The position numbers were made by a program, and so were the translations under genes. The notes below the pieces were generated by a model. That model worked only from the letters and a program-made list of their open reading frames with translations. It did not search any database and had not been told where the DNA came from. Positions 1-28,577 of a stretch of 34,842 bases of DNA are shown one piece after another. This DNA comes from Minisyncoccota bacterium (GTDB lineage: Bacteria > Patescibacteriota > Minisyncoccia > Phycocordibacterales > UBA2100). Within the stretch, counting starts at the first letter, position 1. Each line of letters begins with the position of its first letter. The DNA lies in assembly GCA_020058565.1 (NCBI GenBank), contig JAGVDT010000036.1, positions 1 to 34,842 of the forward strand, written 5' to 3'.

Positions 1-150
1 GAGTGAGCCGGATGGGATGTTTGAAATAGCGAGGCTGGTGGTGGTGGCGTTTGCGATCACTGCATCTGCGAATGAAGAAGTAGATGATGCGTTGATGCCG
101 CTGGTGAAGTTGAGATAGGTGGTGGTGGCGTTGTTTGGGAAGAGGTAGCC
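1..150 (-). repeat. Copy 1 of a ~150-nt near-identical intragenic DNA repeat (window starts inside or at it)
   Basis: gagtgagccggatgggatgtttgaaatagcgaggctggtggtggtggcgtttgcgatcactgc... aligns without gaps to 1195-1344 and 1645-1794. It encodes YLFPNNATTTYLNFTSGINASSTSSFADAVIANATTTSLAISNIPSGSL. Confidence 0.85.
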
Positions 151-3100
151 AAATGTTGAGTAGTCAGTACCCGGGACGGCGGCCTGTATTGCCCCACCCG
201 CCCCTGCTTTAAGAAGAGATCCATTGGCGATGTTTGCGATTGCAAAGGATGTCGTGGTGGCATTCGCGAACAGCGCCGATGAAGTCGAAACAAAATTTCC
301 AACCGCGAGCGCGCTGTAGAACGTCGAGGTGCTGACCGCGAGATTGGCGACTCCACCGACGGAGAGCAGCGTTCCGGCGCTGGTGGTGCCGATCCCGACA
401 TTGTTTGAAAAATATGACTTACCCATCACTTCAAATATGCTCGCGAGCGTGGAAGTGCCGCTGGCGCCTACAACCACGACATCGTTTGTATCCGTGGGGT
501 AAATTCGCAAGTCGTCGGTAGACGTAGACCATGCGCCTGCGCCGCCGCCGCCGCCGGAAGAAATGTCGGTGCCCCACACCGGCAAAAGGCTGCCGTTGAG
601 CTTGAGGACATTTCCGCTTGCTGCACCGCCAGTCGTCAGTACTGTGAGATGGTTGGGCGAATCAGCGTACAAGATGTCTCCCGTAGCGTACGTCGTTATT
701 CCAGTACCCCCCTGCGTTGCCGCGAGCGTGCCGGAGATATTCGCCAGAGTTGTGGTTGCGGTCCATGTGGGCACTCCGCCAAGAAGCGCCAAGACTTGCC
801 CCGGAAGACCTGCCGATGTGGTGGCGAGCGCTCCGGAGCCGTTTCCATAGAGGAGCGCGCCAGTGGCGACACTCGACCAGCCGGTCCCACCGTAGATCGC
901 GCTCAAAGTGCTGGTTGCCGAAACTGTGCCATTGATCGCCTGCAACGGTCCCGTAAGGCTGCCAATCGAGAACGTGCCGTTAAATGCGTTGGTGCCGGTA
1001 AAAGTATTATTCGCATATGTCTTTGCGATCGTAGTAGAGGCATCCGCAAAATAGATAGCGGAAGTGGTCGAAAAGAAATCACGCTGCGTCTTCCAGAAGT
1101 CTGTTGAGGTGGTGCTAAAGAGCGTGGCGTTCGCCGAGAGGAAGTCGGTGCCTGCTACAGCTGCAAGTACCGAGCCGCCGGTGGTTGTTTTGAGGAGTGA
1201 GCCGGATGGGATGTTGGAGATGGCAAGTGATGTCGTGGTGGCGTTTGCGATCACTGCGTCTGCGAATGATGAAGTGGAAGATGCGTTGATGCCGGAGGTG
1301 AAGTTGAGGTAGGTGGTGGTGGCGCTGTTTGGGAAAAGGTACGAGAAGTTGGCGTAGTCGGTGCCGGCTACTGCTGCCACGACACTCCCCTGTGCGTTGG
1401 TTTTGAGGAGGACTGAAGAAAGTCCGGTAAAGATCAGGTTGGTGGTGGTGGCGGTGCCATTTACGGTAAGGCCGCCGGTTTGGGTGCCATCGCCGATGGT
1501 GGTGGAGGCAAAGGCGGTGAGGCCGCCGTTGAAGTTGATGAGCGTGTTGGTGGCGTTGTTTGGGAAGAGGTAGGCGAAGGTGGAGGCGACGTAGTCGGTG
1601 CCCGCGACCGCGGCCAAAACTGAGCCACCAAGACCTACCTTCAGGAGCGAGCCGTTGGTGATGTTGGAAATAGCGAGGCTGGTGGTGGTCGCGTTTGCGA
1701 TCACTGCGTCGGCGAATGAAGAAGTAGATGATGCGTTGATGCCTGAGGTGAAGTTGAGGTAGGTGGTGGTGGCGTTGTTTGGGAAGAGGTATGCAAACGC
1801 GCTACCGGTCTGGTCGCTCCCGCAGCCAAACGTGCCGTTGTTGTAGGTGAGAAATGATCCGGCCTGGCAGACATTGAGACCTGCACCAAAGAGCTGCGAA
1901 GTGGAAGCAATCGAGGCAAAGAGCGTGGTCGTTGTCGCATTCACGAAATCCGCGTCAGCGAAATGCGAAGTCGACGAGGCGAAGATTCCGCTTTGCGCCC
2001 ATATTGGACTCGAGGTAGCGGCGGCCACTACCGAGTAATTAGAGAGCCATGTAAACGGCGCCCCTTGTCCCACCGCAGTCTGGTCCGTTACGCAGGAAAA
2101 TCGGCCGTTTGCGTACGTGAGCACTTCGCCGCCCGCGCAGGTAGCGAGGCCCGCTCCGTAGTAGAGCGTTGAGGATGCGTAGCTGGCAGAAATGCCGGTG
2201 GTGGAAGCATATGCAAATGTCTGTGTACCCGTAAATGTGTTGTTGACATATGTTTTAGGAATTGTGGTAGAAGCATCTATAAAGTAGATAGCGCTCGTTG
2301 TCGAAAAGCCGGACAGACTTTGTGTCGAAAGGAAATACGAGGCTGATGTCGTAGAAAATGCGAGGCCCTGGTATTGCTCTAGGAAATATGCCGATGATGT
2401 TGTCGAGAAAAGATTGCGAGAAGAGAGAAACGCATCGGCCGAAGTGGTAGAAAAGAAATTCGTTGCGCTTGCCCAGTAGTTTACGCTCGTGGTTGAGAAA
2501 AAGTCGTTGGCAACTTTCCAATAATCAGCGCTGGTGGTCGAAAAGAAAAATCCCTTATCGTACGTCGCGAGAAGATGCTCTGCAGATGTGGTCGAGAAGA
2601 AATTGTTTTGCGTTTTCCAGTAGTCAGCCGATGTTGTCGAGAAAGCCGAGATGTTTTGCTGAGCAAGGAAGTACGAAGCCGATGTAGTGGAAAACGCCGC
2701 ACCTTGATTCAGCGCTAGGAAATTCGAGGCCGACGTGGTGGAAAATCCGAGCGCGATCAGCTGCGCCGCCGTATACCCGCTGTGCGTGCCCGTCCAATCT
2801 CCCGTGCTTGTACTTACGTAGTCCTCTCCCGGAGTCGCGAGACTCACGGCGCCGTCGGCGCCGACTTTCAAAATCCCATTCGTCAAAGATGAGATGACAA
2901 GGTTTGAAGTAGATGCATGCGCGGACGTGACAGCGGTCGTGGATGCATACGGGAATACTGATGCGTTAGTCGATGTTGCGACAAAGTTTGGCGAGGTGAT
3001 GGCGTTGTATGCAACAATCGTTCCCCGGAAAAGGCTGTTGCCTCTGACTTCGATAATGTTTCCTATTGTCGTCGTCGCCGTATTTCCGACCAACACCACC

Positions 3101-4620
3101 TGTGCCGGATTCGACGTATACACCGCAAGCTCATCCGTTGTGGTTGCCCACGCGCCGGCGCCACCGCTTCCCTGGAGATCGGGCTGCCAGCTCGGGAAGC
3201 CGCCATTGAGTTTGAGCACGAGACCATTGGCGCCAGCCGGCAGCGCCGCAAGGTTGTCTGCGACGTCCGCATACAGTATGTCCCCTGCCGCGAGCGAACT
3301 TGGCACATCAGTCAGCGCGACAAACGTCGTGACGCCGCTTACGTTGGTGACATTGGTCACGGTAGTTCCTCCGCCGCCGCCGGCCAACGATATCGCCTGA
3401 TACACCTTGGATATATCCGGAGAATGTGCGATGGAGTTGGCATCGATTTTCGCCGATAGACTCGCTTCAAGCTGCGCTAGCCGGCTATTGAGAAGGGATT
3501 CGCTGATGCCTCCCTCGCTTACCACGCGCTCCACTGTGACGCGTTCGATGACTCGCTCGCTTGTCGCCTGAGCGATTGTAGTGGGCTGAACATTTTTCTG
3601 CACTGTTTCTGCGATTTGCTGCGGGGTCGGGCGCGGCAAGGGCGCAGGTGCCGGAGGCGGCGTCTGGGCGAGTGGCTGCGAAACGATCGGTGTCACTTTC
3701 AAAGTGACGGTAGCCTGATTGCTACCGCTAATCATCGCAAAGAAAGATCCAACACTCGAAGAAATTGCGCCGAAGAAGTTAGCAACCGGATTGCTAGCTG
3801 CAGCTGCTAGCGCCGTGCGCGAATCCGATACTGCGCTGAGTGGCATTGAAAAATCTGACTGCGCGATCTGAGCGCTTTCGCTGCCGGATGTCGGCTGCAC
3901 ACCGGTGATGGCGGCAACAGACGACGAGTACATAGCGCGAACATTCTTCGCAAAGCTCGGATCAAACGCGGAATACACGCCGACCAAAATCAAGACGGCA
4001 AATGTCATGGCTGCCGCGCGATGCACCATATCCGCCGCCGGGATCAAAATATGCTTTCCATGCGTCACGTGCGTGACTGCGTCGTGGAAACCAGCTTGAA
4101 CTCCCGTAGGAGCCGGTATGTATGAAGCCGCGTGCGCTATTTTTGCCTTTAGTCCGTGGCGAAAATCCGAGTGAAGCGCCTTACGATATGCGGCGCGACG
4201 CTTGGCGTGCTCCATCGTGTGAACTTTCGGCAAACTAGAAAAATTATTCTCCGGAAAAATAATCCGGTGTGACTCTCGCTCCTGATTCTCGACAAGCTGC
4301 TTAAAGGCAGACTTAGAATGCTCGGCTGCCTTAGGCACGGGTATCGTAGGCGCGTGAAAAACTGCGAATCTCTGATCTTTGTACTCCTGCTTGCGTTGCT
4401 TGCTAAGGCTTTCTTTGCGCTCGATTTTGCTTACTTCGCTCGATCCGAGAAACTTCGACAGTGAACTAGGCTCAACATACCAATTCTTTCCAACGCGTCT
4501 TCCGGCAATTCTTCCTGCGCGACATAACCTGGTTATGTAGTCTCGGGACAGACCAGCAGCAAGAGCAGCATCTGAGGCCGATACGTACCGTTCTTTGCCA
4601 AAGAAAATCTCGTCAGACAT
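1..4620 (-). CDS. Giant repeat-rich, N-terminally membrane-anchored fibre/adhesin-like protein; C-terminus lies beyond the window start; >=1540 aa; missing from supplied ORF track
   Basis: I checked every plus-strand triplet in phase 1-3, 4-6, ... and found no tta/cta/tca between 1 and 4620, so the minus strand is open throughout. The ATG is the rc of 4618-4620 and is preceded by an in-frame stop (cta 4630-4632). The translation starts MSDEIFFGKERYVSASDAALAAGLSRDYITRLCRAGRIAGRRVGKNWYVEPSSL (excisionase/HTH_17-like). It has a single TM, RAAAMTFAVLILVGVYSAF (3964-4020), and a Pro-rich linker QPLAQTPPPAPAPLPRPTPQQ (3613-3678). After that come >1100 aa of T/S/G/A/N-rich repeats. Confidence 0.85.
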   Translation of the reverse strand, partial: MSDEIFFGKERYVSASDAALAAGLSRDYITRLCRAGRIAGRRVGKNWYVEPSSLSKFLGSSEVSKIERKESLSKQRKQEYKDQRFAVFHAPTIPVPKAAEHSKSAFKQLVENQERESHRIIFPENNFSSLPKVHTMEHAKRRAAYRKALHSDFRHGLKAKIAHAASYIPAPTGVQAGFHDAVTHVTHGKHILIPAADMVHRAAAMTFAVLILVGVYSAFDPSFAKNVRAMYSSSVAAITGVQPTSGSESAQIAQSDFSMPLSAVSDSRTALAAAASNPVANFFGAISSSVGSFFAMISGSNQATVTLKVTPIVSQPLAQTPPPAPAPLPRPTPQQIAETVQKNVQPTTIAQATSERVIERVTVERVVSEGGISESLLNSRLAQLEASLSAKIDANSIAHSPDISKVYQAISLAGGGGGTTVTNVTNVSGVTTFVALTDVPSSLAAGDILYADVADNLAALPAGANGLVLKLNGGFPSWQPDLQGSGGAGAWATTTDELAVYTSNPAQVVLVGNTATTTIGNIIEVRGNSLFRGTIVAYNAITSPNFVATSTNASVFPYASTTAVTSAHASTSNLVISSLTNGILKVGADGAVSLATPGEDYVSTSTGDWTGTHSGYTAAQLIALGFSTTSASNFLALNQGAAFSTTSASYFLAQQNISAFSTTSADYWKTQNNFFSTTSAEHLLATYDKGFFFSTTSADYWKVANDFFSTTSVNYWASATNFFSTTSADAFLSSRNLFSTTSSAYFLEQYQGLAFSTTSASYFLSTQSLSGFSTTSAIYFIDASTTIPKTYVNNTFTGTQTFAYASTTGISASYASSTLYYGAGLATCAGGEVLTYANGRFSCVTDQTAVGQGAPFTWLSNYSVVAAATSSPIWAQSGIFASSTSHFADADFVNATTTTLFASIASTSQLFGAGLNVCQAGSFLTYNNGTFGCGSDQTGSAFAYLFPNNATTTYLNFTSGINASSTSSFADAVIANATTTSLAISNITNGSLLKVGLGGSVLAAVAGTDYVASTFAYLFPNNATNTLINFNGGLTAFASTTIGDGTQTGGLTVNGTATTTNLIFTGLSSVLLKTNAQGSVVAAVAGTDYANFSYLFPNSATTTYLNFTSGINASSTSSFADAVIANATTTSLAISNIPSGSLLKTTTGGSVLAAVAGTDFLSANATLFSTTSTDFWKTQRDFFSTTSAIYFADASTTIAKTYANNTFTGTNAFNGTFSIGSLTGPLQAINGTVSATSTLSAIYGGTGWSSVATGALLYGNGSGALATTSAGLPGQVLALLGGVPTWTATTTLANISGTLAATQGGTGITTYATGDILYADSPNHLTVLTTGGAASGNVLKLNGSLLPVWGTDISSGGGGGAGAWSTSTDDLRIYPTDTNDVVVVGASGTSTLASIFEVMGKSYFSNNVGIGTTSAGTLLSVGGVANLAVSTSTFYSALAVGNFVSTSSALFANATTTSFAIANIANGSLLKAGAGGAIQAAVPGTDYSTFGYLFPNNATTTYLNFTSGINASSTSSFADAVIANATTTSLAISNIPSGSL
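1195..1344 (-). repeat. Copy 2 of the ~150-nt intragenic DNA repeat
   Basis: gagtgagccggatgggatgttggagatggcaagtgatgtcgtggtggcgtttgcgatcactgcgtctgcgaatgatgaagtgg... is collinear with copies 1 and 3. Confidence 0.8.
1645..1794 (-). repeat. Copy 3 of the ~150-nt intragenic DNA repeat
   Basis: gagcgagccgttggtgatgttggaaatagcgaggctggtggtggtcgcgtttgcgatcactgcgtcggcgaatgaagaagtagatgatgcgttgat... By hand alignment it has about 13 mismatches in 150 nt against copy 1. Confidence 0.85.
2270..2750 (-). repeat. Intragenic tandem array of about 10 consecutive 15-18-aa units built on FSTTSAxY(F/W); two further units at 1021-1122
   Basis: Hand translation gives FSTTSASNFLALNQGAA, FSTTSASYFLAQQNISA, FSTTSADYWKTQNNF, FSTTSAEHLLATYDKGFF, FSTTSADYWKVANDF, FSTTSVNYWASATNF, FSTTSADAFLSSRNL, FSTTSSAYFLEQYQGLA, FSTTSASYFLSTQSLSG, FSTTSAIYFIDASTT. 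At the DNA level there are recurring ggtcgaaaagaaa / tgtcgagaaa strings. Confidence 0.8.
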
Positions 4621-4622
4621 AT

Positions 4623-4754
4623 TTATCGGCTACTAGACAGAAATCCCCAGAATGAAATGCGAATCATGCCGCCGCGAAGACGTACCGGTCCAGAAATTTG
4701 ATGAGCACTCAAATCCTGGAGCAAAGCTGCAGATTTTGAATTCTGTTTCTTCAT
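4623..4754 (-). CDS. Speculative 43-codon upstream ORF abutting the giant gene
   Basis: The minus strand reads ATG (rc of 4752-4754) ... TAA (rc of 4623-4625), giving MKKQNSKSAALLQDLSAHQISGPVRLRGGMIRISFWGFLSSSR. The stop lies 2 nt before the giant gene ATG (cgaTAAatATG). It is below the length cut-off of the ORF track. No recognisable domain, so it could be chance. Confidence 0.2.
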   Translation of the reverse strand: MKKQNSKSAALLQDLSAHQISGPVRLRGGMIRISFWGFLSSSR

Positions 4755-5111
4755 GCTTGAAATTTTCTGCCAGCTTCGCGTTAAGATTTCGAGTTTTAGC
4801 TCGGTTCAGGAATTGTTCGGGTGACCGATTTAACTAATATTTTACTAGACATTTCGGACATTTTATTTTCGCGATTCTGCAAAATCTGTGGATATGTATG
4901 CATATTTTTTTCCTTACGATATAGAGACGATGGATCGCGATATATTTCGCAAACTAAAGCAATTTTATGCGGGGAACCACACCACCGACAATATTTATCA
5001 AAATATTCTTATCCCAACTTGGTTTCCTGACTAATTCTCGGCTGCCCGAGCATCGATAAATATAGGTATATTGCTGATTGAGGCTGATTCAGACTCTGCT
5101 TTGCGGCCCGA

Positions 5112-5147
5112 CCAAAATGCGACGACCGAGTTTAGCTCGGTCGCCGC
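5112..5147 (-). terminator. Intrinsic-terminator-like hairpin downstream of the 339-aa gene
   Basis: The minus strand reads gcggcgaccgag-ctaaa-ctcggtcgtcgc followed by auuuugg. The stem is about 11 bp with one mismatch. It lies about 25 nt after the stop at 5172. Confidence 0.6.
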
Positions 5148-5171
5148 AAATGGTTTTAACTCAGAGTAGAT

Positions 5172-6191
5172 TTACTCGACCGAACGGATGTACACGAGCT
5201 CCTTCGAAAGCAGGACCTCAAGTGAGAGCTTATTGGCTGCCGCGGTTGCTACTGAAGCCACTTGGCGATCATCGGGCTCAAATATCGCACTATAGATTCT
5301 CTCGCCGCCACTCAATCCTAGCGCGGTTCCCGCAAGCACTAAGAGTACAAGCACTAGGACTGGAACTGTGGCTTGAAACATAGACTTTCCGGGTATTGGG
5401 ATACTTCTCGGTTGATTTTTTTTGGAGCCTTCTGCGGACGATTTATGCTCGAACGCATAGTGAGTTTTTTCGTCGGCTTCCTCAACGAGCCTGGCCTCTA
5501 GTACTCGTATGGGTATTCTGCTGCTTGTCTGTTGCATCGAATCCAAAGCGGCGGTAGCGGGTTGCGCTCGGAGCTCGAACTCCGGCAGTACGGACGAGAG
5601 CGTCGGAAAGAGTGGCTTTTCGTCTTTGCCATACTCCATCAGTTTTTGCTTCTCTACGTTTATCGGCAAAGCATTCTGGATCTCAACTGGCACCGGACGT
5701 TTTAATCCGACTGATTCTGCCTGCACTGCGCGCAGAAGCGCTTCTTTCTCTTTTTTGTGTTCGAGGATCGCTTCCCTGTCAACATACCAGCGATTTCCCA
5801 CCTGCGTCGAGGGAATTTTGCCTGCACGAGCAAGTTGGCCGACGTAATCTTGATTGTAATCTGTTATCTTTGCAGCGAGCGCGGCAGAGACAAATTCTTT
5901 TCCGTCTTCCCGAATTGTCGCTTCTACATTTGGATCAGGCTGGTATTTTGGCGGTTCAGGTTTGAACGCCTCGGCTTTTAATTTGTATGCATGAAGAGAT
6001 TCAGGAAATACATACCATTGGTTTCCTACCCGCCTGGCGTCAACGTGCCCAGCACGACAGAGCTGCCCAACGTAGTCTTGGGTATATCCAAATTCCACAG
6101 CCGCCCTTTTAGAGGCAATGTAAGTTTTGCTATCAAGAGTAACCGCATCCATTCCGGTAAGTATAACAGCACGAGAACGCATATCGTCCAT
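5172..6191 (-). CDS. Hypothetical membrane protein with two excisionase/HTH_17-like repeats and a C-terminal TM helix
   Basis: ORF-track protein of 339 aa. The motifs are YIASKRAAVEFGYTQDYVGQLCRAGHVDARRVGNQWYVFPESL and FVSAALAAKITDYNQDYVGQLARAGKIPSTQVGNRWYVDREAI, paralogous to the N-terminus of the giant protein. The hydrophobic helix ATVPVLVLVLLVLAGTALGL sits near the C-terminus. Confidence 0.75.
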   Translation of the reverse strand: MDDMRSRAVILTGMDAVTLDSKTYIASKRAAVEFGYTQDYVGQLCRAGHVDARRVGNQWYVFPESLHAYKLKAEAFKPEPPKYQPDPNVEATIREDGKEFVSAALAAKITDYNQDYVGQLARAGKIPSTQVGNRWYVDREAILEHKKEKEALLRAVQAESVGLKRPVPVEIQNALPINVEKQKLMEYGKDEKPLFPTLSSVLPEFELRAQPATAALDSMQQTSSRIPIRVLEARLVEEADEKTHYAFEHKSSAEGSKKNQPRSIPIPGKSMFQATVPVLVLVLLVLAGTALGLSGGERIYSAIFEPDDRQVASVATAAANKLSLEVLLSKELVYIRSVE

Positions 6192-6381
6192 CCGAGTTGC
6201 CGAGATAGTGAATAACTTCGCGCCATAATAAGCGCCCGTAAATCCGGAGCACGAATACTGAAGTCCGAGATACTATTAAATTCACCAACTAATATCTGAA
6301 GAATCACCCATAAAGCTGCCTAAGAATTTCAAATCAACCGGGTCAATCTGACACCATTGCTGGGATGCCCTGCTCGAAATA

Positions 6382-8154
6382 TCAAACCTCCGAGCTCGAG
6401 CCTATTTGCTGTTTAATCATTGCTCGTAACGCCGCAGGATCGGCTGCTCCCCTCAGTGACTTCATTGCCTGCCCCACGAGGTACTCTATAGCCGCTGTTT
6501 TGCCCGATTTCACATCATCTACCACAGTGGCGTTATCGGCAATAATTTTGGCCACAATTTGCGCGAGTTGTGCTGAGGAATCGCTTTGAAGCAGCTTTTG
6601 CTCCCTGGCCAGCACTTCGGGGTCGCTTTTGCCGTCCATGCAAATTTGAAGCAACTCCTTTACGGCCCGCGACGATATTCTTTTTTCGCTGGCCATTCGG
6701 ATAACTTTCGCGAAATTATCGGGAGAAATAGGCACAATATCGAGAATTTTCATATCTCGGGTACCGGCATCTCGGATATCCGTGATTAACTTTACTAGAT
6801 CATTGGAGATGTAGTTAGAAGCCAGCTTTAGTTCAGCGGGTTTCTCCTGTAGAGCATGGCCGACGGCTTCAAAAAATTCGCCGTACAGTGGCTCTTTGAC
6901 ATAGAGCTCAATATCTTGTGTATTGATTCCTAAGGTCGCGAAACGCGTTCTTTTCTCCCACGGCAGCTCGGGCAGCGTCTTTTTTACGGTATCTAAAGTC
7001 AGGCCGAGTTCGGAAAGCTTTAGGGATGGTAGATCGGGATCGGGAAAATATCGGTAGTCTGCACTACCCTCTTTTACACGCTGGCTAAAAGTAGCCTGCT
7101 TGTGTTCGTCCCAGCCGCGAGTTTCCTGCACAACTTTTTCACCTTTCTCAAGTAGCGCTATCTGCCGTTTTACTTCGTAGTCTATGGCGCGCTCCAGAGC
7201 TCGAAAGGAATTTATGTTCTTTACCTCAACTTTAGTACCGAGTTTGGAAATATCGACTTTGAAATTAGCCTCAGGTAGATCTCCTGCATTCTCCGCGTTC
7301 ACTCCGGTGCTTTTGCTCGTCCCGCTTGAGTCCTCGGCGGCAGCTCTTTCGCTTGCCCCATTGCCCGTTTTTATTCGCTTTGACCCGTTCTCCCCATTCT
7401 CTCCGTTCGTTCCGACGGAATCGCTGCCATTAGAGACCAAAGACGCGGAAGCGCTTACGGCTTCAAAAATATGTGCTGATGGGCTTCTCGTCGCTGAAGA
7501 AACTAAGGAACTTTCTGGCGAGAAAGAATTATTCTTCATGCGCTGTGCATCTTCCGGAGATATTTTTGCGACACTAATGTTTGCTTCGAGCCGCATCTGC
7601 CCTTTTTCCATATCAGCTTCGGATGCTCCGAGCGTTCTCAAAAGCACCTGCAATTCCCTGCCGAAATTTCCCGCCTCCCTCGCGCTATGCAGCACCGGCT
7701 CTGTCACAAGCTCCATCAAAGGAACGCCCGCACGATTGTAATCCACCAAAGTAGCTCCCGAGCTTTCATCGTGGATTGAACTAGCGGTGTCCTCCTCAAG
7801 ATGAATCCTGGTCAGCGTAACACCGTTTAGCGATCCTCCTGAGACCAAAGGGTACTCAAACTGCGACAACTGATACCCTTTTGGGAGGTCAGGATAGAAA
7901 TAATTCTTTCGGTCGAATTCCGTATAATCTGCCAATTTTGCGCCAAGCGCTGCCCCAACACGCAAAACATGCTCTACCGCAGCCCTATTTATCACCGGAA
8001 GGGTGCCCGGATGGGCCATACACACCGGACAAACGTTGATATTAGGCCGTTTTTTCGCTGCATCATTCTTTGATGCACAAAACATCTTGGTGCGCGTGTT
8101 TAATTCCGCATGAATTTCGAGACCAATCGTCGGCCAATATCTGTCTTGCGCCAT
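6382..8154 (-). CDS. gatB: Asp-tRNA(Asn)/Glu-tRNA(Gln) amidotransferase subunit B, with an internal low-complexity insertion
   Basis: N-terminus WPTIGLEIHAELNTRTKMFC...CPVCMAHPGTLPV, plus DRKNYFYPDLPKGYQLSQ, RIHLEEDT and SADYRYFPDPDLP, and a C-terminal YqeY-like tail (AAIEYLVGQAMKSLRGAADP). All are classic GatB signatures. Confidence 0.95.
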   Translation of the reverse strand: MAQDRYWPTIGLEIHAELNTRTKMFCASKNDAAKKRPNINVCPVCMAHPGTLPVINRAAVEHVLRVGAALGAKLADYTEFDRKNYFYPDLPKGYQLSQFEYPLVSGGSLNGVTLTRIHLEEDTASSIHDESSGATLVDYNRAGVPLMELVTEPVLHSAREAGNFGRELQVLLRTLGASEADMEKGQMRLEANISVAKISPEDAQRMKNNSFSPESSLVSSATRSPSAHIFEAVSASASLVSNGSDSVGTNGENGENGSKRIKTGNGASERAAAEDSSGTSKSTGVNAENAGDLPEANFKVDISKLGTKVEVKNINSFRALERAIDYEVKRQIALLEKGEKVVQETRGWDEHKQATFSQRVKEGSADYRYFPDPDLPSLKLSELGLTLDTVKKTLPELPWEKRTRFATLGINTQDIELYVKEPLYGEFFEAVGHALQEKPAELKLASNYISNDLVKLITDIRDAGTRDMKILDIVPISPDNFAKVIRMASEKRISSRAVKELLQICMDGKSDPEVLAREQKLLQSDSSAQLAQIVAKIIADNATVVDDVKSGKTAAIEYLVGQAMKSLRGAADPAALRAMIKQQIGSSSEV

Positions 8155-8625: not shown

Positions 8626-9288
8626 ATGAGAAAAACAAAATTCGAGTTAGGCGGCCACTATCACCTATTCAATCGCGGCGTCGACAATCGAAATGTCTTT
8701 GTTTCGAAAGAAGACTACGATCGCTTCGAGGCGTACTTATATCTCCTGAACGACACGGAGAGCCCGCGAGCGGCCAATTTTTTTGTTGGCAAAAGATACG
8801 GATCAATTTTTGAAAGCGCGCGAACACAACCGCTGATAGCAATAGGCGCATTTTCATTATTGCCAACCAATTTTCATATCATTGCCTCCCCTCTTGTCGA
8901 TCGAGGTCTTCCCAAATTTATGCAGAAGCTTACGACAGCCTATACAATGTACTTTAACGACAAGTATCAGCGCACGGGCTCGTTGTTTGAGGGTACCTAC
9001 AAAGCTCATGGGGCCACAAGCGATAATCATTTGAAATTCCTGCTATCGTTAACGCACCTTGCCCCCGCCCAACTGTTCAACAAAAAATGGGCCGAGGACG
9101 ATATTTTTAAGCTGGAGCGACTATCCGGTGAGCTGATGGATTATCGTTACTCGAGTGTGGGCGAATACATCAGCGGTAAAAATATAATCACTGACCCGCA
9201 ATACTTCCCACGATACTTCGGACGCGCCAAGAGCATGGACACGTATCTAAGATACTGGGAGGATAACAAAAACAAATACACTAACTAG
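8626..9288 (+). CDS. IS200/IS605-type Y1 (HUH) transposase homologue, REP-associated tyrosine transposase (RAYT)-like; HUH motif degenerate
   Basis: YHLFNRGVDNRNVF...DYDRF at the N-terminus, LLPTNFHIIA where the family has (M/L)PNH(F/V)H(L/I)L, and RTGSLFEGTYKAH matching the G.LFQGRYKS catalytic-Tyr motif. Confidence 0.8.
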   Translation: MRKTKFELGGHYHLFNRGVDNRNVFVSKEDYDRFEAYLYLLNDTESPRAANFFVGKRYGSIFESARTQPLIAIGAFSLLPTNFHIIASPLVDRGLPKFMQKLTTAYTMYFNDKYQRTGSLFEGTYKAHGATSDNHLKFLLSLTHLAPAQLFNKKWAEDDIFKLERLSGELMDYRYSSVGEYISGKNIITDPQYFPRYFGRAKSMDTYLRYWEDNKNKYTN

Positions 9289-14786: not shown

Positions 14787-14821
14787 ATGCTATTTTTACG
14801 CGACCGCGCATTTATAGCATA
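14786..14821. promoter_or_regulatory. 36-nt palindromic element, copy 2 (abuts the PaaX-like start codon)
   Basis: tatgctatttttacgcgaccgcgcatttatagcata, with arms tatgctat/atagcata. It overlaps the T of the ATG (rc of 14784-14786). Confidence 0.6.
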
Positions 14822-14936
14822 GGAATATTTTTCCGCCATGCGTTTACTCTGCGAGAGTAGCAAAATATTTTTTCAGCCTATCAAGACGATCCTGCAGTTA
14901 ATGCAACAGATGACTTCGCAACGTAGGCCATAAGAC

Positions 14937-14961
14937 AAACCCGCGGCGAAGCCGCGGGTTT
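14937..14961 (-). terminator. Rho-independent terminator-like hairpin
   Basis: The minus strand reads aaacccgcggc-uuc-gccgcggguuu followed by gucuuau. The 11-bp GC-rich stem runs into a U-rich tract. On the plus strand the tail is gcgcaag, a poor terminator. Confidence 0.7.
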
Positions 14962-14974
14962 GCGCAAGAAACTT

Positions 14975-14994
14975 TTGAGTGCGTACGCACTCAA
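14975..14994 (-). other. Perfect 9-bp hairpin immediately after the polybasic sORF stop
   Basis: ttgagtgcg-ta-cgcactcaa. It lies 3 nt downstream of the sORF stop on the minus strand. Confidence 0.6.
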
Positions 14995-14997
14995 GCC

Positions 14998-15042
14998 TTA
15001 TCGGCGCTTCTTTGCTTTCTTTGCCTTCTTTTTCTTTGCCAT
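14998..15042 (-). CDS. Speculative 14-codon polybasic sORF (MAKKKKAKKAKKRR)
   Basis: rc of 14998-15042 is atggcaaagaaaaagaaggcaaagaaagcaaagaagcgccgataa. No Shine-Dalgarno sequence is visible. It is followed by two hairpins. Confidence 0.2.
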   Translation of the reverse strand: MAKKKKAKKAKKRR

Positions 15043-15163
15043 ATCGATGATGGGTTTTTTGTATCTAATTCGACCCGCCTCGCTCTCCCAGAAGAGTCTG
15101 ACGATGCGTTATTCCTAGATTATTGCATTGCAATATGAAAAATGTGCGAACAAAAAAAATTTG

Positions 15164-15172
15164 TGTGGATAA
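15164..15172 (-). promoter_or_regulatory. Perfect consensus DnaA box (TTATCCACA on the minus strand)
   Basis: The plus strand reads tgtggataa, inside the AT-rich island. It is the only perfect copy I found here. A 2-mismatch box, ttatccatc, lies at 15457-15465. Confidence 0.35.
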
Positions 15173-15174
15173 CT

Positions 15175-15212
15175 GAATCATAAAAATATTTTAAAAAAGA
15201 TTTTTATGATTC
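15175..15212. repeat. Perfect 13-bp AT-rich inverted repeat with a 12-nt spacer
   Basis: gaatcataaaaat (15175-15187), attttaaaaaag, atttttatgattc (15200-15212). Confidence 0.7.
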
Positions 15213-15292
15213 GGAAATCAAAAGTTAAAATTTGAAATTCAAGATGACAACTCAAAATTACATTGCATCGCGAATTCATCATCGAATAAATA

Positions 15293-15327
15293 TATTGAAA
15301 GGCGCAATGCGGAGGACGGGTGCGAGC
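15293..15327. repeat. 35-nt perfect direct repeat, copy 1
   Basis: tattgaaaggcgcaatgcggaggacgggtgcgagc, identical to 15473-15507 (period 180 nt). Confidence 0.9.
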
Positions 15328-15472
15328 ACGCAAAGAGCTCCGCTTTAAGAACCGCACGGTTCTTAATTATCTCCTTCACGGGGAAACTACAGTTTCCCCG
15401 ACCCCCTTCGGACTTTGGAGCTCGCCAGAGCGTTTGGCTTGAGCGGGTAAGCCGATTTTATCCATCGTTTTG
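15293..15472 (-). ncRNA. Candidate structured ncRNA, unit A (diverged tandem paralogue of unit B)
   Basis: Two stretches are homologous to unit B. cacggggaaactacagt (15377-15393) matches cacggtaaaactgcagt (15608-15624). actttggagctcgccagagcgtttggc matches actttcacgagagccagagattgctggc. The hairpins are 15379-15400 (10 bp) and 15347-15364 (8 bp), with gagctcc/ggagctc pairing 15345-15351 to 15416-15422. It ends in the same 35-nt module followed by uuucaauauauuuauu. Confidence 0.35.
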
Positions 15473-15507
15473 TATTGAAAGGCGCAATGCGGAGGACGGG
15501 TGCGAGC
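15473..15507. repeat. 35-nt perfect direct repeat, copy 2
   Basis: tattgaaaggcgcaatgcggaggacgggtgcgagc. The flanks diverge immediately on both sides (a/g at -1, a/t at +1). Confidence 0.9.
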
Positions 15508-15686
15508 TCCAAAGTGAAAGTTATGTGAGTGCCGCCGCCCTCCGCGCTGCGCCCTTCGTAGTCTTGACGAAGAAGAACTGCATCCTTCCAAAGAAATGAT
15601 ACCACCCCACGGTAAAACTGCAGTACCCCGCGAAGCGGGGTACTTACAGTACTTTCACGAGAGCCAGAGATTGCTGGCACTCACAT
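15473..15686 (-). ncRNA. Candidate structured ncRNA, unit B (promoter-proximal); family unknown
   Basis: An 11-bp closing helix, auguGAGUGCC (15686-15676) with GGCACUCacau (15533-15523), encloses about 140 nt. That interior contains hairpins 15617-15650 (core 9 bp, guaccccgc-uuc-gcgggguac) and 15554-15572 (cuucgu/acgaag). A 17-bp stem pairs 15553-15535 with 15499-15481 inside the 35-nt module. One pair in that stem is G-U on the minus strand but A-C on the plus strand. The stem is followed by uuucaaua. Confidence 0.45.
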
Positions 15687-15691
15687 TGAGG

Positions 15692-15719
15692 ATTATACCC
15701 TAGCGACGTCGCGCAGCAA
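15692..15719 (-). promoter_or_regulatory. Sigma70-like promoter TTGCTG-16 nt-TATAAT reading into the structured units
   Basis: The minus strand reads ttgctg (rc of 15714-15719), cgcgacgtcgctaggg, tataat (rc of 15692-15697). It starts directly after the stop of the upstream gene (15721). The predicted start, near 15684-15686, coincides with the 5' end of the 11-bp closing helix. Confidence 0.5.
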
Positions 15720-15720
15720 C

Positions 15721-17961
15721 CTAAGGCTTGGGTGCGGTTCCGTCTTGCACTTGTTGGATATATTTTTCCGCTTCGGCCGTCACCGATGGCACATTTTGTA
15801 TTGCGGTGCGCAGGGTGCTGATGGATTTCACAGTATCTCCGGCGGCATAGTAAGCGGCGGCCAAGGTGAAATAAGCCTCAGAATTCCACGGCTCCGCGGC
15901 AACTTTCGCTTCCCACAGCTTAGCAATCTTGTGGTACTGCCCGCGCGCCCCGTATGCGGCCGCTATGCGCTGATCGGCAGCTCTGCCTGTCGGTATAATG
16001 GGAGCAAGGACTTCGTCTGCAAGCTGGTCGGACCCTGCCCGAATCAAAAGCGCCGCGTAGTACAGACGCGCCTCGGCATTTTCCGGCTCAACCTCATACG
16101 CCGACCTGAAAGCGTCAAGCGCTCCCTGAGCGTCGTTGCGAGCGATGGCATTCTGCCCCACTTGGTAAAAGATCGATTGCTTGGTGGGCGAAAGCTCCAG
16201 CGCGCGATCAAAGGACTTGCGCGCGTTTTCCAGATCGCCGTATGCCTGGTACACAAGCCCGGTGAAAAGCGGGAAGCGCGCATCAAGCGGAGAAATCTTT
16301 TCTTGCTTTGTCATTTCCGCCACAGAAACTTGCAGGAACTTCTGTTTGATGTCATTTGAAATGCTGGAACCGGCTATCTGCGCTGCGGCCTGCGCCAGCT
16401 GCTCGCGGACTTCCTGCGTGCCGATAGAATTCACGCTGGCCGCGGCCTGAAAATCCGAGAGGACCTTTTCATAATTGCCCTGCGAGCCGGACATCAGAGC
16501 ACTGATGAGTGTAAGGTTTTGGGAAATCCCGGGCGCATTTGCCCACCACCCTATACTTGCCACCAGTATCGCGCACCCCACCATCGAAAATCCGAGTGCT
16601 TCTTTTGGCAGGGGCGCGGCCTCTACTACACGCGGCGTTTTATCGGCTTCGCTTTCACGCCAGATCACATAGCCCAGCACAGTCGCAAAAAGAATGTAGC
16701 TCGTCACGTTGTCGAATACGAACAGGTTGTGGAAGAAATACCCCGCAAAGAGGCCGATAAGTATTGCGCTTTCGTCGTGCCTGAAAGCTCTGCTGCGCCA
16801 GAGACTATAGAGCGCTGTCGCAAATATCGAGAGGTACGCCGCGAGCCCCAGCATTCCGCCTGCGACGAGCCAGTCGAAAATGCTGTTATGCACTCGATCG
16901 AACCACGGTTCGGCGCTATGCATGCCCGGATCGTAATATTTGTCGAAAACAATCGCGTAGTTCTCCTGGCCCCAGCCGAGTATTGGACGCTCTTTAAAGC
17001 CCTGCCAAGCCATGCCCCAGTTCATGTAGCGAGACTGCACCGTCGGATCGTTTATGGAAATGTTGGCCAGACGCACCAGAAAACCGATCTTGGCGACTTC
17101 CGGAGAACTGCGAAGCGTATAAAGAATGCCGGCGATGACGATCAAAACGCCAATAGCCGCGAAAACGTAGATTCTAATGCGCTTGGCATTTTCCGCGCGA
17201 AACACGTACACAAGCCCCGCGAGTGTCGCACCGCCGATAAGCCCCAGAGTCGTGCCGCGAGTACCGGTAAACAAGAGAACGATAATATCGAAAACTATTA
17301 CGGACCCGTAGGTTATCGACATCCACATTCGCTTGCCGGGTTTGCGCTCACGCCATTCCTGGACCCAAAGCATTGCGGCAAGGAATATATGGAAAAGATC
17401 GTACGCAGCGAGATAAATAGCGTTGCCAAACGTGGCGTCTATACGGCCGGCGAGCCCATTGGCTCCGCCCTGCCCCACCGCGCTCCATCCGAAAAGCTGG
17501 CGCATCCCCATAAAGCCGACGCCCACCGATACCGCGAGCGAGAGCTGGAAGAGCCTGCGCCACAGTTTCTCGGTATTCAAAACAGAGACCACTACGACCA
17601 GGTACGTGAAAAGGTGGGCGATGGTGACCCATCCATCCATACGCTCAAAGTTGCTCCAGAAGCTCTTGAACGGATTAACCCCCTGCGCATCGGCGATTGC
17701 CATTATGAGCACAAATACGGCAAATGCCGCCAGTATCCAATTTTTGCGCGGCCGGTACTGCGGCAGTATCAGTGCGAGCGCTAGCCACGCGGCAGCCATT
17801 ATTTCGACAACGATGCGAAAGTAGAAATTTTTGCCTGTGATGAAGGGGAAAAACATCCCGTCCGCGATGTAAAAAACCACGAAAGGAAGCGAGAAGGCTC
17901 CGCCGATCGCTGTCCAGCGCAGGATTTGTTCGAGAGCCCGCATGAGGACGCATTGTAGCAC
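15721..17961 (-). CDS. O-antigen ligase/polymerase-like (Wzy_C-type) polytopic membrane protein with a C-terminal TPR domain
   Basis: About 10-12 TM segments with a large loop after FTGTRGTTLGLIGGATLAGL. The C-terminal ~250 aa are TPR-like (YQAYGDLENARKSFDRALELSP, ARNDAQGALDAFRSAYEVEPENAEA, YYAAGDTVKSISTLRTAIQ). Confidence 0.7.
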   Translation of the reverse strand: MLQCVLMRALEQILRWTAIGGAFSLPFVVFYIADGMFFPFITGKNFYFRIVVEIMAAAWLALALILPQYRPRKNWILAAFAVFVLIMAIADAQGVNPFKSFWSNFERMDGWVTIAHLFTYLVVVVSVLNTEKLWRRLFQLSLAVSVGVGFMGMRQLFGWSAVGQGGANGLAGRIDATFGNAIYLAAYDLFHIFLAAMLWVQEWRERKPGKRMWMSITYGSVIVFDIIVLLFTGTRGTTLGLIGGATLAGLVYVFRAENAKRIRIYVFAAIGVLIVIAGILYTLRSSPEVAKIGFLVRLANISINDPTVQSRYMNWGMAWQGFKERPILGWGQENYAIVFDKYYDPGMHSAEPWFDRVHNSIFDWLVAGGMLGLAAYLSIFATALYSLWRSRAFRHDESAILIGLFAGYFFHNLFVFDNVTSYILFATVLGYVIWRESEADKTPRVVEAAPLPKEALGFSMVGCAILVASIGWWANAPGISQNLTLISALMSGSQGNYEKVLSDFQAAASVNSIGTQEVREQLAQAAAQIAGSSISNDIKQKFLQVSVAEMTKQEKISPLDARFPLFTGLVYQAYGDLENARKSFDRALELSPTKQSIFYQVGQNAIARNDAQGALDAFRSAYEVEPENAEARLYYAALLIRAGSDQLADEVLAPIIPTGRAADQRIAAAYGARGQYHKIAKLWEAKVAAEPWNSEAYFTLAAAYYAAGDTVKSISTLRTAIQNVPSVTAEAEKYIQQVQDGTAPKP

Positions 17962-17982
17962 GGCCCCGAAATGCCGCCATCG

Positions 17983-19218
17983 CTACATGACCTTGACCTT
18001 CGGTACCGGTATGATGAATTTCGTACCCTGCGCCCGCAGCGCCTGTTCGCGATGCAAGATCGCAGGCGCATAGTTCCAAGCCAGCAAAAGCAAATAATCC
18101 GGCCTCTTCGTGAAAAGTATATCTGGGGGGACCACCGGGATATGCGCTCCCGGAGTAAACGTCCATTGCTTGAGGGGTATGGTATCGGTAATGAAATCCA
18201 GATGTTTGGCTGTAACACCGACGTAATTCAAAAGGGTGTTGCCCTTGGCCGAAGCTCCGTACCCCGCAATAGAGGCGCCTTTTTTCTTTAGTTTGTCTAA
18301 GAGCGACTTAAGGTCGCGTTTGTTTTTCTCTACTTTAGGGGCAAACCGGCGGAATGCGCGCATGGAGTCGATGCCTACGCTCCTTTCTAGGGCGAGAAGT
18401 TTTTTGACCCTTGCGGAAGGCTTTCCTTTTTTCTGCACGAAAAATCTCAAAGATTCTCCGTGTATCGGGACCCTCTGTACGTCGGTTACCATAAAACCAA
18501 ATCGCTCTGCGAGATATTTGACGGCGTGGAGCGAATAGTAGGAAAGATGTTCGTGATAAATCTGGTCGAATCCTCCATCGCCGATCAAGTTGTAAACCCA
18601 ATGCGCCTCGAAGACAAAAACCCCGTCGTCGCGCAAAAGTATCTCAATCCCCCTGAAAACATCGTCCAGATCGTCGATATGCGCTATCACATTGTTTGCG
18701 AATATGACTTTCGCTTGGCCATGCTTTTTGACGATGTCCTTGGCAACGCGGACGCCGAAAAAGTCAACGATTGTTTCGACACCTCGTTTTTTAGCCTCGA
18801 GCGCGGCAGTCTCTGCCGGGTCGACCCCAAGCACGTTCACTTCATCTTTTATGGCAGAAAGCAAAATACCGTCATTACTTCCTATTTCGACCGCCAGATC
18901 TCCCCGCCCGAGTCCGAAGCGCTTTACGATGTCTCGCGCCTCTCTCTGGAAATGGTCAACCAGGACCGGGGATCCGGACGTCAAATAATGGTACCCAGAA
19001 AATAAAACCTCCGGGTCCACCACATGCGCCAACTGCACCAGAGAACATTTCCGACAAAAAACGAGCTGCAGCGGATACGTTGCGTCCTTTTTACGGGCAG
19101 CCTCCTTGGAGAGAAAGGCATTGGCGAGCGCGGTCTTGCCAAGGTTTAGGATGAGCTTCAAATCTTTTGCGCCGCAGATCCGGCAGGTCTTTCTTTTACG
19201 GAAATGAGCGCTTGACAT
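17983..19218 (-). CDS. SAM-dependent NDP-hexose C-methyltransferase (TylCIII-like architecture)
   Basis: N-terminal Zn-ribbon-type CRICGAKDLKLILNLGKTALANAF, a class I methyltransferase core (DLAVEIGSNDGILL), and a C-methyltransferase C-terminal domain. I prefer the start at MSSAHF (ATG is rc of 19216-19218, preceded by aagggggc), because the track's longer ORF overlaps the upstream gene by 67 nt. Confidence 0.7.
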   Translation of the reverse strand: MSSAHFRKRKTCRICGAKDLKLILNLGKTALANAFLSKEAARKKDATYPLQLVFCRKCSLVQLAHVVDPEVLFSGYHYLTSGSPVLVDHFQREARDIVKRFGLGRGDLAVEIGSNDGILLSAIKDEVNVLGVDPAETAALEAKKRGVETIVDFFGVRVAKDIVKKHGQAKVIFANNVIAHIDDLDDVFRGIEILLRDDGVFVFEAHWVYNLIGDGGFDQIYHEHLSYYSLHAVKYLAERFGFMVTDVQRVPIHGESLRFFVQKKGKPSARVKKLLALERSVGIDSMRAFRRFAPKVEKNKRDLKSLLDKLKKKGASIAGYGASAKGNTLLNYVGVTAKHLDFITDTIPLKQWTFTPGAHIPVVPPDILFTKRPDYLLLLAWNYAPAILHREQALRAQGTKFIIPVPKVKVM

Positions 19219-19229
19219 GCCCCCTTGTA

Positions 19230-20678: not shown

Positions 20679-20696
20679 TCGAGGATTGTATCAGCA

Positions 20697-21623
20697 CTAG
20701 AGATTGGCGTCTTGTATCCATTTGATTGTGCGCTTAACCCCTTCGGAGAGGCTTACTTTGGGCACCCATCCGAGCGCTTTTTTTGTCTCGCGTATCGAGA
20801 AATATAGATTTGGCACGTCAATAAAACGCTGCTCTTTGTGTATCATTGTTGCCTTGAGTCCGCTTTGCTTTTCTATAGCCTGAATAAGATTTCCGAGCGT
20901 AACGCCGCGGCCGCTCGCTACATTGAGCGTGAGGTTTTTCACCCGAGGCTTCAAGGCTGAAACAATCGCTCCCGATAAATCATCGATATACAAAAAATCC
21001 CGCGTAATGTCGGGTGATCCCCATATTTCGATGGGTCTTTTACCCAGAATATTGTACGCAAAGCGGCTCACCACGCCGTGCGTAGTGGCAAACTGCCCGG
21101 GCCCATAGGCATTGGTGCTTCGCAAAATGACATATGCGAATCCGTGTTTTTCAGCATAGTGGCGCACATAATGCTCCGTGGCGAGTTTCATCGTTCCGTA
21201 TGCAGACCTGGGATGCGGCAGTGCGCTGGTTTCCACCGGAAGCTTCGGCGCTGATCCGTACACGGCCGGTCCCGAAGACAAATACACAATTTTCGCGATG
21301 CGTTCTCGGGCCGCCTGTTCAAGCAGCGTAAGCGTGCCTATAATGCTGACTTTGGCGTCCTGAATGGGATTTTGTTCGGACGTGGCTTGATTGGAGGTGC
21401 CTGCCAAATGAATAATAATGCTTCCTGGCGCTATAGCTTTCCTAAGAATATTCAAATCATCGAAGTCACCCCTAAAAAAACGTATCTTCCCCGCAAACTC
21501 TTTTGGGGGGTTGTTGTGATCAATAACCGTAATTGCGTTATATCCTGCGGCGAGAAGATGCTCAACGAGATTTTTTCCAACGAAGCCGGAGCCCCCGGTT
21601 ATGCAAATGGGTGTTTTTTTCAT
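20697..21623 (-). CDS. NAD-dependent nucleotide-sugar epimerase/dehydratase (extended SDR)
   Basis: ITGGSGFVGKNLVEHLL (GxxGxxG) and a YGTMK (YxxxK) catalytic motif. 308 aa. Confidence 0.8.
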   Translation of the reverse strand: MKKTPICITGGSGFVGKNLVEHLLAAGYNAITVIDHNNPPKEFAGKIRFFRGDFDDLNILRKAIAPGSIIIHLAGTSNQATSEQNPIQDAKVSIIGTLTLLEQAARERIAKIVYLSSGPAVYGSAPKLPVETSALPHPRSAYGTMKLATEHYVRHYAEKHGFAYVILRSTNAYGPGQFATTHGVVSRFAYNILGKRPIEIWGSPDITRDFLYIDDLSGAIVSALKPRVKNLTLNVASGRGVTLGNLIQAIEKQSGLKATMIHKEQRFIDVPNLYFSIRETKKALGWVPKVSLSEGVKRTIKWIQDANL

Positions 21624-21661
21624 GATCGAATCCGGACAATACGCACCGTACTACACTAGTC

Positions 21662-28571: not shown

Positions 28572-28577
28572 AACCGG

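Follow-up and report, generated by a model that had tools for sequence, protein, structure and literature searches.

HTH_17 winged-helix heads on two adjacent proteins with predicted membrane anchors, one of them a giant, in Kaiserbacteria and Paceibacteria

The described proteins that come closest to the ones discussed here are of several kinds. ToxR and TcpP are two membrane proteins that cooperate at one promoter. RacA of Bacillus subtilis tethers DNA to the cell envelope: it is itself soluble, reaches the membrane via DivIVA and binds GC-rich sites as a symmetric dimer. RodZ, reportedly (in an account by van den Ent et al. from 2010), consists of a cytoplasmic helix-turn-helix (HTH) domain, a basic linker, a single transmembrane (TM) helix and an extracytoplasmic domain, and its HTH domain is said to bind MreB and not DNA. 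CbpM uses a MerR-like fold to bind the J-domain of CbpA. CadC has been reviewed as a transmembrane DNA-binding protein (PMC5430869), as has ToxR elsewhere (PMC7496328). BldC, phage Xis and RdfS are small winged-helix proteins that oligomerise on direct repeats in DNA (PMC5859096, PMC11963761), and TraN of pIP501 inserts its two recognition helices into adjacent major grooves (PMC6158623). Here we describe two adjacent genes in a 34.8-kb stretch of DNA from a Minisyncoccota bacterium (contig JAGVDT010000036.1; the whole stretch is called the window below). Both products carry winged-helix heads of the HTH_17 family and appear to be anchored in the membrane: one is a small, two-headed protein, and the other is a giant, repeat-rich protein whose gene is cut by the left window edge.

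The two genes and their parts are listed here, with the residues of the small protein in the numbering of its longest open reading frame (ORF) and model confidence given as the predicted local distance difference test (pLDDT):

5172..6152, minus strand: small partner gene (two HTH_17 domains, linker, TM helix, short tail); the longest ORF reaches 6191 (339 aa)
5994..6122, minus strand: HTH copy 1 of the small protein, residues 24-66 (profile; AlphaFold2 pLDDT ~95)
5766..5894, minus strand: HTH copy 2 of the small protein, residues 100-142 (HTH_17 30.1 bits; pLDDT ~95)
5313..5369, minus strand: TM helix of the small protein, residues 275-293 (AlphaFold2 helix; hydrophobicity)
5184..5201, minus strand: conserved C-terminal motif ELVYxR, predicted to be extracytoplasmic (36 homologues)
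1..4620, minus strand: gene for the giant, a putative membrane/surface protein, 5'-complete, at least 1540 aa (stop-free frame from 4629 to 1, ATG at 4620)
4357..4620, minus strand: winged-helix (HTH_17) head and long basic helix of the giant, residues 1-88 (Pfam 31.5 bits; AlphaFold2; Foldseek)
4459..4587, minus strand: core motif of the giant, residues 12-54 (profile)
3970..4023, minus strand: hydrophobic segment of the giant, residues 200-217, either a signal anchor or the h/c region of a cleavable, internal signal-peptide-like element (56-orthologue alignment)
3445..3558, minus strand: predicted exterior juxtamembrane motif of the giant, residues 355-392, ERVIE..R.V..GGI(S/T)E..L..RL..L...LS (orthologue conservation)
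1..3444, minus strand: repeat-rich region of the giant, rich in Thr/Ser/Ala/Asn/Gly and predicted to be extracytoplasmic (translation; DNA repeats)

The giant and the two halves of the small protein's head region share a motif of ~43 residues, (Y/F)(V/I)S(A/S)..AA.....(S/T/N)(R/Q)DY(I/V)..L.RAG.I....VG..WYV. In BLASTP comparisons the giant copy matches copy 1 with E=1e-13 (38% identity over 65 aa) and copy 2 with E=4e-9 (47% identity over 43 aa). A profile made from the three copies and run against the six-frame translation of the window finds just those three, at 86-95 bits each; the next-best match has E>1, and no fourth copy was found. Given these E-values and only three profile matches in the window, the repeat is genuine rather than due to chance, and the three copies are paralogous. 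The original prediction, made from the letters of the sequence, of a ~40-aa motif used three times in two adjacent proteins is therefore borne out; its positions for the small-protein copies agree with ours to within a few bases, whereas the giant copy, which it placed at about 4486-4600, lies at nt 4459-4587. The HTH_17-type signature that it recognised in the motif was also recovered: Pfam HTH_17 (PF12728, gathering score 27 bits) scores above its cut-off in both proteins, at 41.7 bits in the small protein and 31.5 bits at the N-terminus of the giant. Scanned singly, the giant copy gives 31.9 bits, copy 2 30.1 bits and copy 1 19.9 bits, the last of these below the cut-off.

AlphaFold2 folds residues 16-161 of the small protein (modelled with an alignment of 36 homologues; pLDDT ~95) into two copies of a beta-hairpin, helices a1 and a2, a two-stranded wing and helix a3. 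Residues 1-88 of the giant adopt the matching fold, with pLDDT of at least 90 over residues ~10-80 and with a3 forming a long helix (51-88). The top single-domain Foldseek matches in the PDB are Pukovnik Xis, DNA-bound BldC, RdfS and DNA-bound RacA, at target TM-scores of 0.5-0.75 and root-mean-square deviations (rmsd) of 1.6-2.9 A; for Pukovnik Xis the values are 0.68-0.71 and 1.7-1.9 A, and for BldC 0.75 and 1.6-1.7 A. The top whole-chain match is TraN (probability 0.99, E=1.6e-3), and nearly all of the nearest solved folds found by Foldseek in the PDB are DNA binders. Sequence searches of the PDB, with a profile and with a single sequence, returned spurious matches only (designed Kelch repeats and esterases), so the likeness to solved structures is at the level of the fold only. 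Both proteins are thus members of the Xis/BldC/MerR-type winged-helix (HTH_17) family; neither the profile nor the fold searches put a rival fold in the place of the HTH domain first read from the sequence.

Conserved features include residues of the heads and a few short motifs. Across the 36 small-protein homologues, the invariant residues of copy 1 are Y24, S27, A30, Y36, D39, Y40, G42, Q43, R46, A52 and W59, and those of copy 2 are A106, Y112, D115, Y116, Q119, L120, A121, R122, Q130, R134 and W135. The exposed face of the recognition helix, Q-D-Y-x-G-Q-L-x-R, is invariant in both heads in these diverged sequences, the linker carries a conserved FKPEPP motif, and copy 2 is followed by a long conserved helix, HK.EKDALLAAVQAESVGL. 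In the giants the equivalent face is nearly invariant as R-D-Y-x-x-R-L-x-R, and the N-terminus MSDEIFFDG.RYISA..AA....TRDY.ARL.R.G...GRR.GKNWYV is kept in 56 orthologues. BldC contacts bases through Arg30 and Lys26 and a phosphate through Lys33 (PMC5859096). Judging from secondary structure, Arg30 would correspond to R31 of the giant (at least 90% conserved) and to Q43 and Q119 of the small protein, and Lys33 to R34, R46 and R122, respectively. The heads are net basic (+1 to +3), as are the giant's wing, GRRxGK, and the helix that follows it.

The gene for the small protein probably starts at ATG 6152, giving 326 aa, rather than at 6191, because its homologues begin with MD(E/A)V.L(D/E)GKTY and a TATACT -10 element lies 7 nt upstream of that ATG. 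It had been described from the sequence as a 339-aa neighbour that ends in a TM helix: the helix is there, at residues 275-293, but it is not terminal, as a tail of ~46 aa that contains ELVYxR follows it. In that motif R336 is invariant and Y334 nearly so in the 36 homologues. In a larger set of 85 homologues the TM helix has a median hydrophobicity of 2.33, and the mean charge over 15 residues is +3.4 before it vs +0.7 after it. From this charge bias, and because no N-terminal signal peptide was found in either protein, we infer that both heads of the small protein are cytoplasmic and that the ~46-aa tail is outside.

The giant is laid out as an HTH head, a long helix, a basic linker, a signal-peptide-like hydrophobic segment and a repeat-rich exterior. 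Residues 200-217 are the sole hydrophobic segment within the N-terminal 350 residues that were examined, and the linker ahead of them has a median net charge of +5; for this reason the head is probably inside and the Thr/Ser-rich remainder outside. The motifs are thus placed in the cytoplasm in both proteins, by charge bias and by the absence of an N-terminal signal peptide, and the picture first drawn from the letters, of a DNA-binding-type domain tethered to the membrane, held up as a predicted single-pass architecture with the heads inside. The giant's segment is moderately hydrophobic (median 1.8 over 19 residues). In 56 orthologues it takes the form HK, 12-13 hydrophobic residues, G-T-Y-(A/S), x-V-D-P. 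This form obeys the -3/-1 rule of signal peptidase I, with A/S/V/T at the candidate -1 position in 56/56 and T/A/S/V at -3 in 54/56; G stands at -4 in 52/56. Most of the complete giants have no C-terminal or other anchor.

Beyond the segment, the conserved juxtamembrane columns are E355, R356, G370, G371, E374, L377, L384 and L388, and AlphaFold2 predicts helices at 374-398 with moderate confidence. No Pfam domain was found in the exterior region (1..3444). The DNA of the giant gene contains a 184-nt direct repeat in three copies (1-184, 1195-1378 and 1645-1828; 79-82% identity) and a 72-nt direct repeat in four copies. These repeats encode recurring YLFPNNATTTYLNFTSGINASSTSSFADAVIANATTTSLAISNI units, and three giants share a common C-terminus, AGQILRLVVCQDGTGSRT.TW. 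Complete orthologues of the giant are 1272-2673 aa long, and those cut by a contig end exceed 3400 aa. In CP066682.1 the giant gene is immediately followed by a 23S_rRNA_IVP/bAvd-family gene (L001, 18077-18568), and a gene of this family is also found near a relative of 5533 aa (P0212 locus). bAvd is an accessory protein of diversity-generating retroelements, and the giants may be targets of such elements.

The small protein has 502 homologues, which are ~300-340 aa long and conserved over their full length; those that are named come from Candidatus Kaiserbacteria or Paceibacterota and are called merely 'helix-turn-helix domain-containing protein'. For the giant, searching for homologues of the first 420 aa with a word index retrieved no more than 3 hits, probably because low-complexity words swamp the candidate list, and exhaustive HMMER was used in its place. 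It found 3025 clusters at 50% identity, 414 of them at E<=1e-10, with representatives of up to 5533 aa. In nearly all of the best 150 of the 3025 clusters, the head starts within the first few residues.

For synteny we took one genome per GTDB species among the Kaiserbacteria/Paceibacteria of the candidate phyla radiation (CPR), and a pattern-plus-tblastn scan yielded 80 loci, of which 77 are informative; the other three end too early for the 3' neighbour to be judged. In 74/77 informative species an ORF in which the motif begins at residue ~12 lies 130-940 bp downstream of the two-headed gene, in the same orientation, and this ORF is usually huge. In one further locus the HTH-led ORF lies 7 kb downstream, and in L007 and L042 a glyceraldehyde-3-phosphate dehydrogenase gene directly follows the small gene. 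The proposal that the two neighbours form a functional pair is therefore supported by their co-occurrence in these species-level genomes. There are variations: two-headed giants occur in L018, L045, L052, L079 and L082, and further HTH-led ORFs, both short (~300 aa) and giant, lie nearby in relatives. The gene order in CP066682.1, a complete Kaiserbacteria genome of 859 kb, is Wzy_C/TPR, secA, gatB, the two-headed gene and a 2256-aa gene whose product begins MTDEIFFDGTRYISAAEAA..TRDYVARL, and in the related loci that were examined the pair always has its place beside gatB and secA. No integrase, recombinase or phage gene is present in the window, and the small protein matched none of 50,697 phage records. 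Given the conserved synteny, the lack of a recombinase in the window and the lack of a match among phage records, the pair is a core chromosomal feature of the lineage, outside any mobile element.

Each gene of the pair has promoter-like sequences of its own, as follows:

4839..4895, minus strand: promoter block of the giant gene, with the box ATATCCACA at 4887-4895, a gap of 42 nt, and CTAGTAAAAT at 4839-4848, which includes the -10-like TAAAAT at 4839-4844
6160..6215, minus strand: promoter of the small gene, leaderless-type, with the degenerate box TTATTCACT at 6207-6215, a gap of 41 nt, TATACT at 6160-6165, and 7 nt before ATG 6152
5118..5148, minus strand: hairpin resembling an intrinsic terminator after the small gene (13-bp stem with 9 GC pairs, then a T run)

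The terminator-like hairpin between the genes implies a separate promoter for the giant. In each gene a (T)TATCCACA box precedes a -10-like hexamer by 41-42 nt. Upstream of the giant a block of the form TTATCCACA...GATATCCGAAATA.CTAGTAAAAT..TAG.TAA.TCG is conserved in 40/76 loci, and 40 of the 43 occurrences of CTAGTAAAAT in 1.14 Mb fall in the region between the small and giant genes; several species have four box-like direct repeats there, 11-12 bp apart with 2-3 bp spacers. The layout of the small gene, (T/A)ATCCACA-N41/42-TATACT-N6/7-ATG, recurs in 28 related loci. Of the 71 phased box promoters within related loci, 69 stand in front of HTH-led genes, and we considered whether the phased box marks an autoregulon of the heads. 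We rejected this: in metagenomes the layout is general, with ~11 of the sampled hits upstream of lexA-like genes and more of them upstream of genes of Xre-type, Y1-transposase-like and other kinds (about half of all hits look like chance), and the 69/71 association is a sampling effect of looking around the locus only. The layout is a promoter type of wider use in these bacteria or their relatives, and because it also precedes lexA-like and other genes, we dropped autoregulation as evidence for DNA binding. The TTATCCACA box, which we take to be identical to the DnaA-box consensus, is more likely to be read by DnaA or another general factor than by the membrane heads.

The arrays of TTATCCACA boxes with 2-3 bp spacers, followed by TAG/TAA-rich sequence, also raised the possibility that the intergenic region is oriC. 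This was rejected as well: in most species the conserved block ends ~38 nt before the giant's start, with a -10-like element at a fixed distance; the flanking genes are co-stranded; GC skew is uniformly negative from 6 to 34 kb; and in CP066682.1 the pair lies at 0.78-0.80 Mb. Rfam scans of the whole window, and permissive scans of the intergenic regions, returned no family.

Of the ways in which the pair might work, the one that we favour, tentatively and at somewhat less than an even chance, is that the heads bind DNA while anchored on the cytoplasmic side of the membrane, either as a ToxR-like regulator or to tether the nucleoid in the manner of RacA. As many as three heads, one of them the giant's and the others the small protein's, would lie next to one another on DNA, and oligomerisation would raise that number, in a placement modelled on BldC, Xis and TraN at adjacent sites. 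The small protein, with two heads, would serve specifically as partner to the one-headed giant, with its ELVYxR tail and the giant's juxtamembrane region as candidate points of contact outside. One outcome could be a membrane-bound transcription factor of the ToxR/TcpP kind, its activity set by the amount or state of the giant; the other could be a tether of the RacA type, which keeps the nucleoid up against the envelope. More speculatively, because the giant's segment resembles the h/c region of a signal peptide, the HTH leader of ~217 aa may be cut from the exported body and stay behind as a small membrane-anchored HTH protein. DNA binding is suggested by the DNA-binding fold neighbours, the residues equivalent to those of BldC, the basic heads and the precedent for tandem heads.

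Several observations weigh against DNA binding by the heads. We identified no cognate DNA site for them, and box-N41/42-TATACT-N6/7-ATG precedes an HTH_17-led gene in 0/80 sampled metagenome hits. An invariant Asp occupies the helix position of BldC's base-contacting Lys26. The protein-binding MerR-like folds CbpM (3ucs) and DafA (9dvi) are among the weaker Foldseek matches, and AlphaFold2 gives the two heads no fixed arrangement (predicted TM-score, pTM, 0.36; rmsd ~21 A to TraN over both domains). The invariant exposed surface would suit a conserved protein partner equally well, and if the giant is an abundant structural protein, it would put many HTH copies at the membrane, unlike a specific regulator.

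A more elaborate form of the DNA-binding reading sees in the heads a new kind of membrane-bound DNA-binding system. They would line up head-to-tail, either along phased repeats like TTATCCACA or on the nucleoid at large, and so couple the export, cleavage or load of the giant to transcription or to attachment of the chromosome to the envelope in ultra-small CPR cells; in its sharpest form signal peptidase would cut after G-T-Y-A, and the leader that stays in the membrane would be a regulator that counts export events. We consider this elaboration unlikely.

The best of the alternatives, possible although in our estimate less probable than DNA binding, is that the heads have given up DNA binding and serve as protein-binding adaptors of the RodZ or CbpM sort. 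They would then hold the two membrane proteins together or link them to something in the cytoplasm, for instance the cytoskeleton, the divisome or a factor for export or glycosylation. The exposed surface is strictly invariant across very diverged species, as would fit such a role, and the CbpM and DafA matches point in the same direction, as does a weak NCBIfam match to MamR, a small HTH_17/Xis-like protein that acts in magnetosome crystal control (PMC3905215). One and the same module of head, linker and TM segment is fused to varied exteriors, from ~300 aa to >5000 aa, as for a general anchoring or targeting module, and the neighbouring genes are for envelope and glycan synthesis and for SecA. 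However, the closest single-domain structural neighbours are nearly all DNA binders, basic residues are kept at the canonical DNA-contact positions and in the wing, and no candidate partner was identified. A tethered regulator and a co-opted interaction module, the two roles offered in the original prediction, both fit the evidence.

We give still less credence to the idea that the HTH domain, linker and type-I signal peptide together form an export leader of ~217 aa, cut after G-T-Y-A/S, although it is compatible with either DNA or protein binding by the heads. The head would hold the nascent giant chain, or the mRNA-DNA locus, at the Sec site, and the remnant would be a by-product or a released signal. 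In the 56 orthologues the -1 position is always small, the -3 position is small or aliphatic and the Gly at -4 would break a helix; the moderate hydrophobicity of the segment, the lack of another anchor in most complete giants and the conserved nearness of secA also fit. The motif could nevertheless be structural, and the small partner has a strong, true TM helix with no G-T-Y-type motif. Moreover, we know of no precedent for a folded domain of 90 aa plus a linker of 110 aa ahead of a signal peptide.

The remaining alternative, an excisionase (recombination directionality factor) or a regulator of a prophage or integrative element, is suggested by the fold likeness to Xis and RdfS and by weak TIGR01764 matches (27.9 bits for the small protein and 17.4 for the giant), but both scores are below the cut-off of 28.8 bits, the window holds no integrase or phage gene and no phage record matches, the pair recurs in 74 species at a fixed site beside gatB and secA, and the proteins are membrane proteins of 326 and >1540 aa, so that the 'excisionase' label of the original prediction, taken literally, is effectively refuted by profile score, genomic setting, protein size and TM segment.

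The remaining genes of the window encode GatB, SecA and Lnt, together with many enzymes that act on glycans and the envelope. The stretch from 15721 to 34536 contains Wzy_C/TPR, three PMT_2-type glycosyltransferases, a GT2 enzyme with a GtrA domain, epimerases/dehydratases, C-/FkbM-type methyltransferases and amine oxidases, and the Thr/Ser-rich giant is a plausible glycosylation substrate. GatB (6382-8154, minus strand) has 590 aa, vs 477-481 aa in the relatives L001 and L003; the extra ~110 residues form a low-complexity insertion rich in Ser/Gly/Asn/Ala, and the GatB_N domain is split into two matched stretches. A 220-aa gene at 8626-9288 (plus strand) has only a sub-threshold match to Y1_Tnp (IS200-like). 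A Y1_Tnp-like gene recurs near the small HTH gene in L003 (8728-9531), L005, L067 and L107; in L003 it sits between the small HTH gene and gatB, and in some relatives it carries a phased TTATCCACA promoter.

A gap of 930 bp (14787-15720) holds a tiny polybasic ORF, MAKKKKAKKAKKRR, at 14998-15042 on the minus strand, with a phased TTATCCACA promoter of its own and a terminator-like hairpin at ~14935-14963. The phased promoter layout also occurs at 15164-15172 (minus strand). Similar lysine-/arginine-rich ORFs are found as frame-shifted traces in L044 and L059. The ORF has no Rfam or Pfam match and could encode a small ribosomal or nucleic-acid-binding peptide. The same gap contains a direct repeat of ~38 nt, gctcgcacccgtcctccgcattgcgcctttcaata, at ~15290-15330 and ~15470-15510 (minus strand), 180 bp apart, in which ARAGORN found no tRNA and Rfam no family.

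Both Paceibacteria and Kaiserbacteria fall within the CPR, bacteria with ultra-small cells that make up a very large share of bacterial diversity and are almost uncultured; little is known of how their envelope, surface fibres and tiny nucleoid are organised. The N-terminal module described here heads thousands of protein clusters, with some members of >5000 residues. Should the heads bind DNA, the result would be a membrane regulator or nucleoid tether that is physically connected to a giant surface protein and uses a fold new to that role; should they bind protein instead, they would be a lineage-specific module for anchoring or targeting giant surface proteins. Either outcome opens CPR cell biology to concrete tests, since the domains are small and soluble and can readily be expressed. 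In the literature on the CPR we found no description of a protein that joins HTH_17, a TM segment and a giant ectodomain, or of its two-headed partner.

Set beside the systems with which we began, the pair is of a known kind, the membrane-anchored HTH proteins. It resembles ToxR, TcpP and CadC in its predicted topology, with an N-terminal cytoplasmic winged helix, one TM segment and an extracytoplasmic part. Their DNA-binding domains, however, are of the OmpR/PhoB type (Trans_reg_C), whereas we found HTH_17 alone, and here one partner is two-headed and the other is a giant, repeat-rich putative surface protein rather than one with a small sensor domain. The architecture is analogous to that of RodZ, which is of similar size to the small protein, but the HTH domain of RodZ is Xre-type (HTH_25) and present in a single copy, and Pfam and NCBIfam scans returned no HTH_25/RodZ match for either protein.

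In fold, Pfam family and basic or polar residues at positions equivalent to DNA contacts, the heads resemble BldC, Xis and RdfS (TM-score 0.54-0.75, rmsd 1.6-2.9 A); those proteins are soluble and only 50-70 aa long, whereas the heads here are in tandem or membrane-anchored and have no recombinase partner. The small protein has two winged-helix domains in one polypeptide, as does TraN, but TraN is soluble and forms a compact internal dimer whose interface resembles a beta-barrel, and the heads of the small protein are separated by a conserved linker of ~35 aa and followed by a TM helix. CbpM (3ucs) shares the MerR-like fold. Both proteins also share with classical MerR regulators the long helix after the head, although a Pfam scan found no MerR/MerR_1 profile and no effector-binding domain in either. 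They are members of the HTH_17 fold family, and neither excisionases nor classical MerR regulators. RacA, with fold match 5i44, likewise has a MerR-like winged helix followed by a long helix, but the anchor here is an integral TM segment. In its working, then, the pair would be at most ToxR/TcpP-like or RacA-like, and it stands outside those families, from which it differs in the type of its DNA-binding domain.

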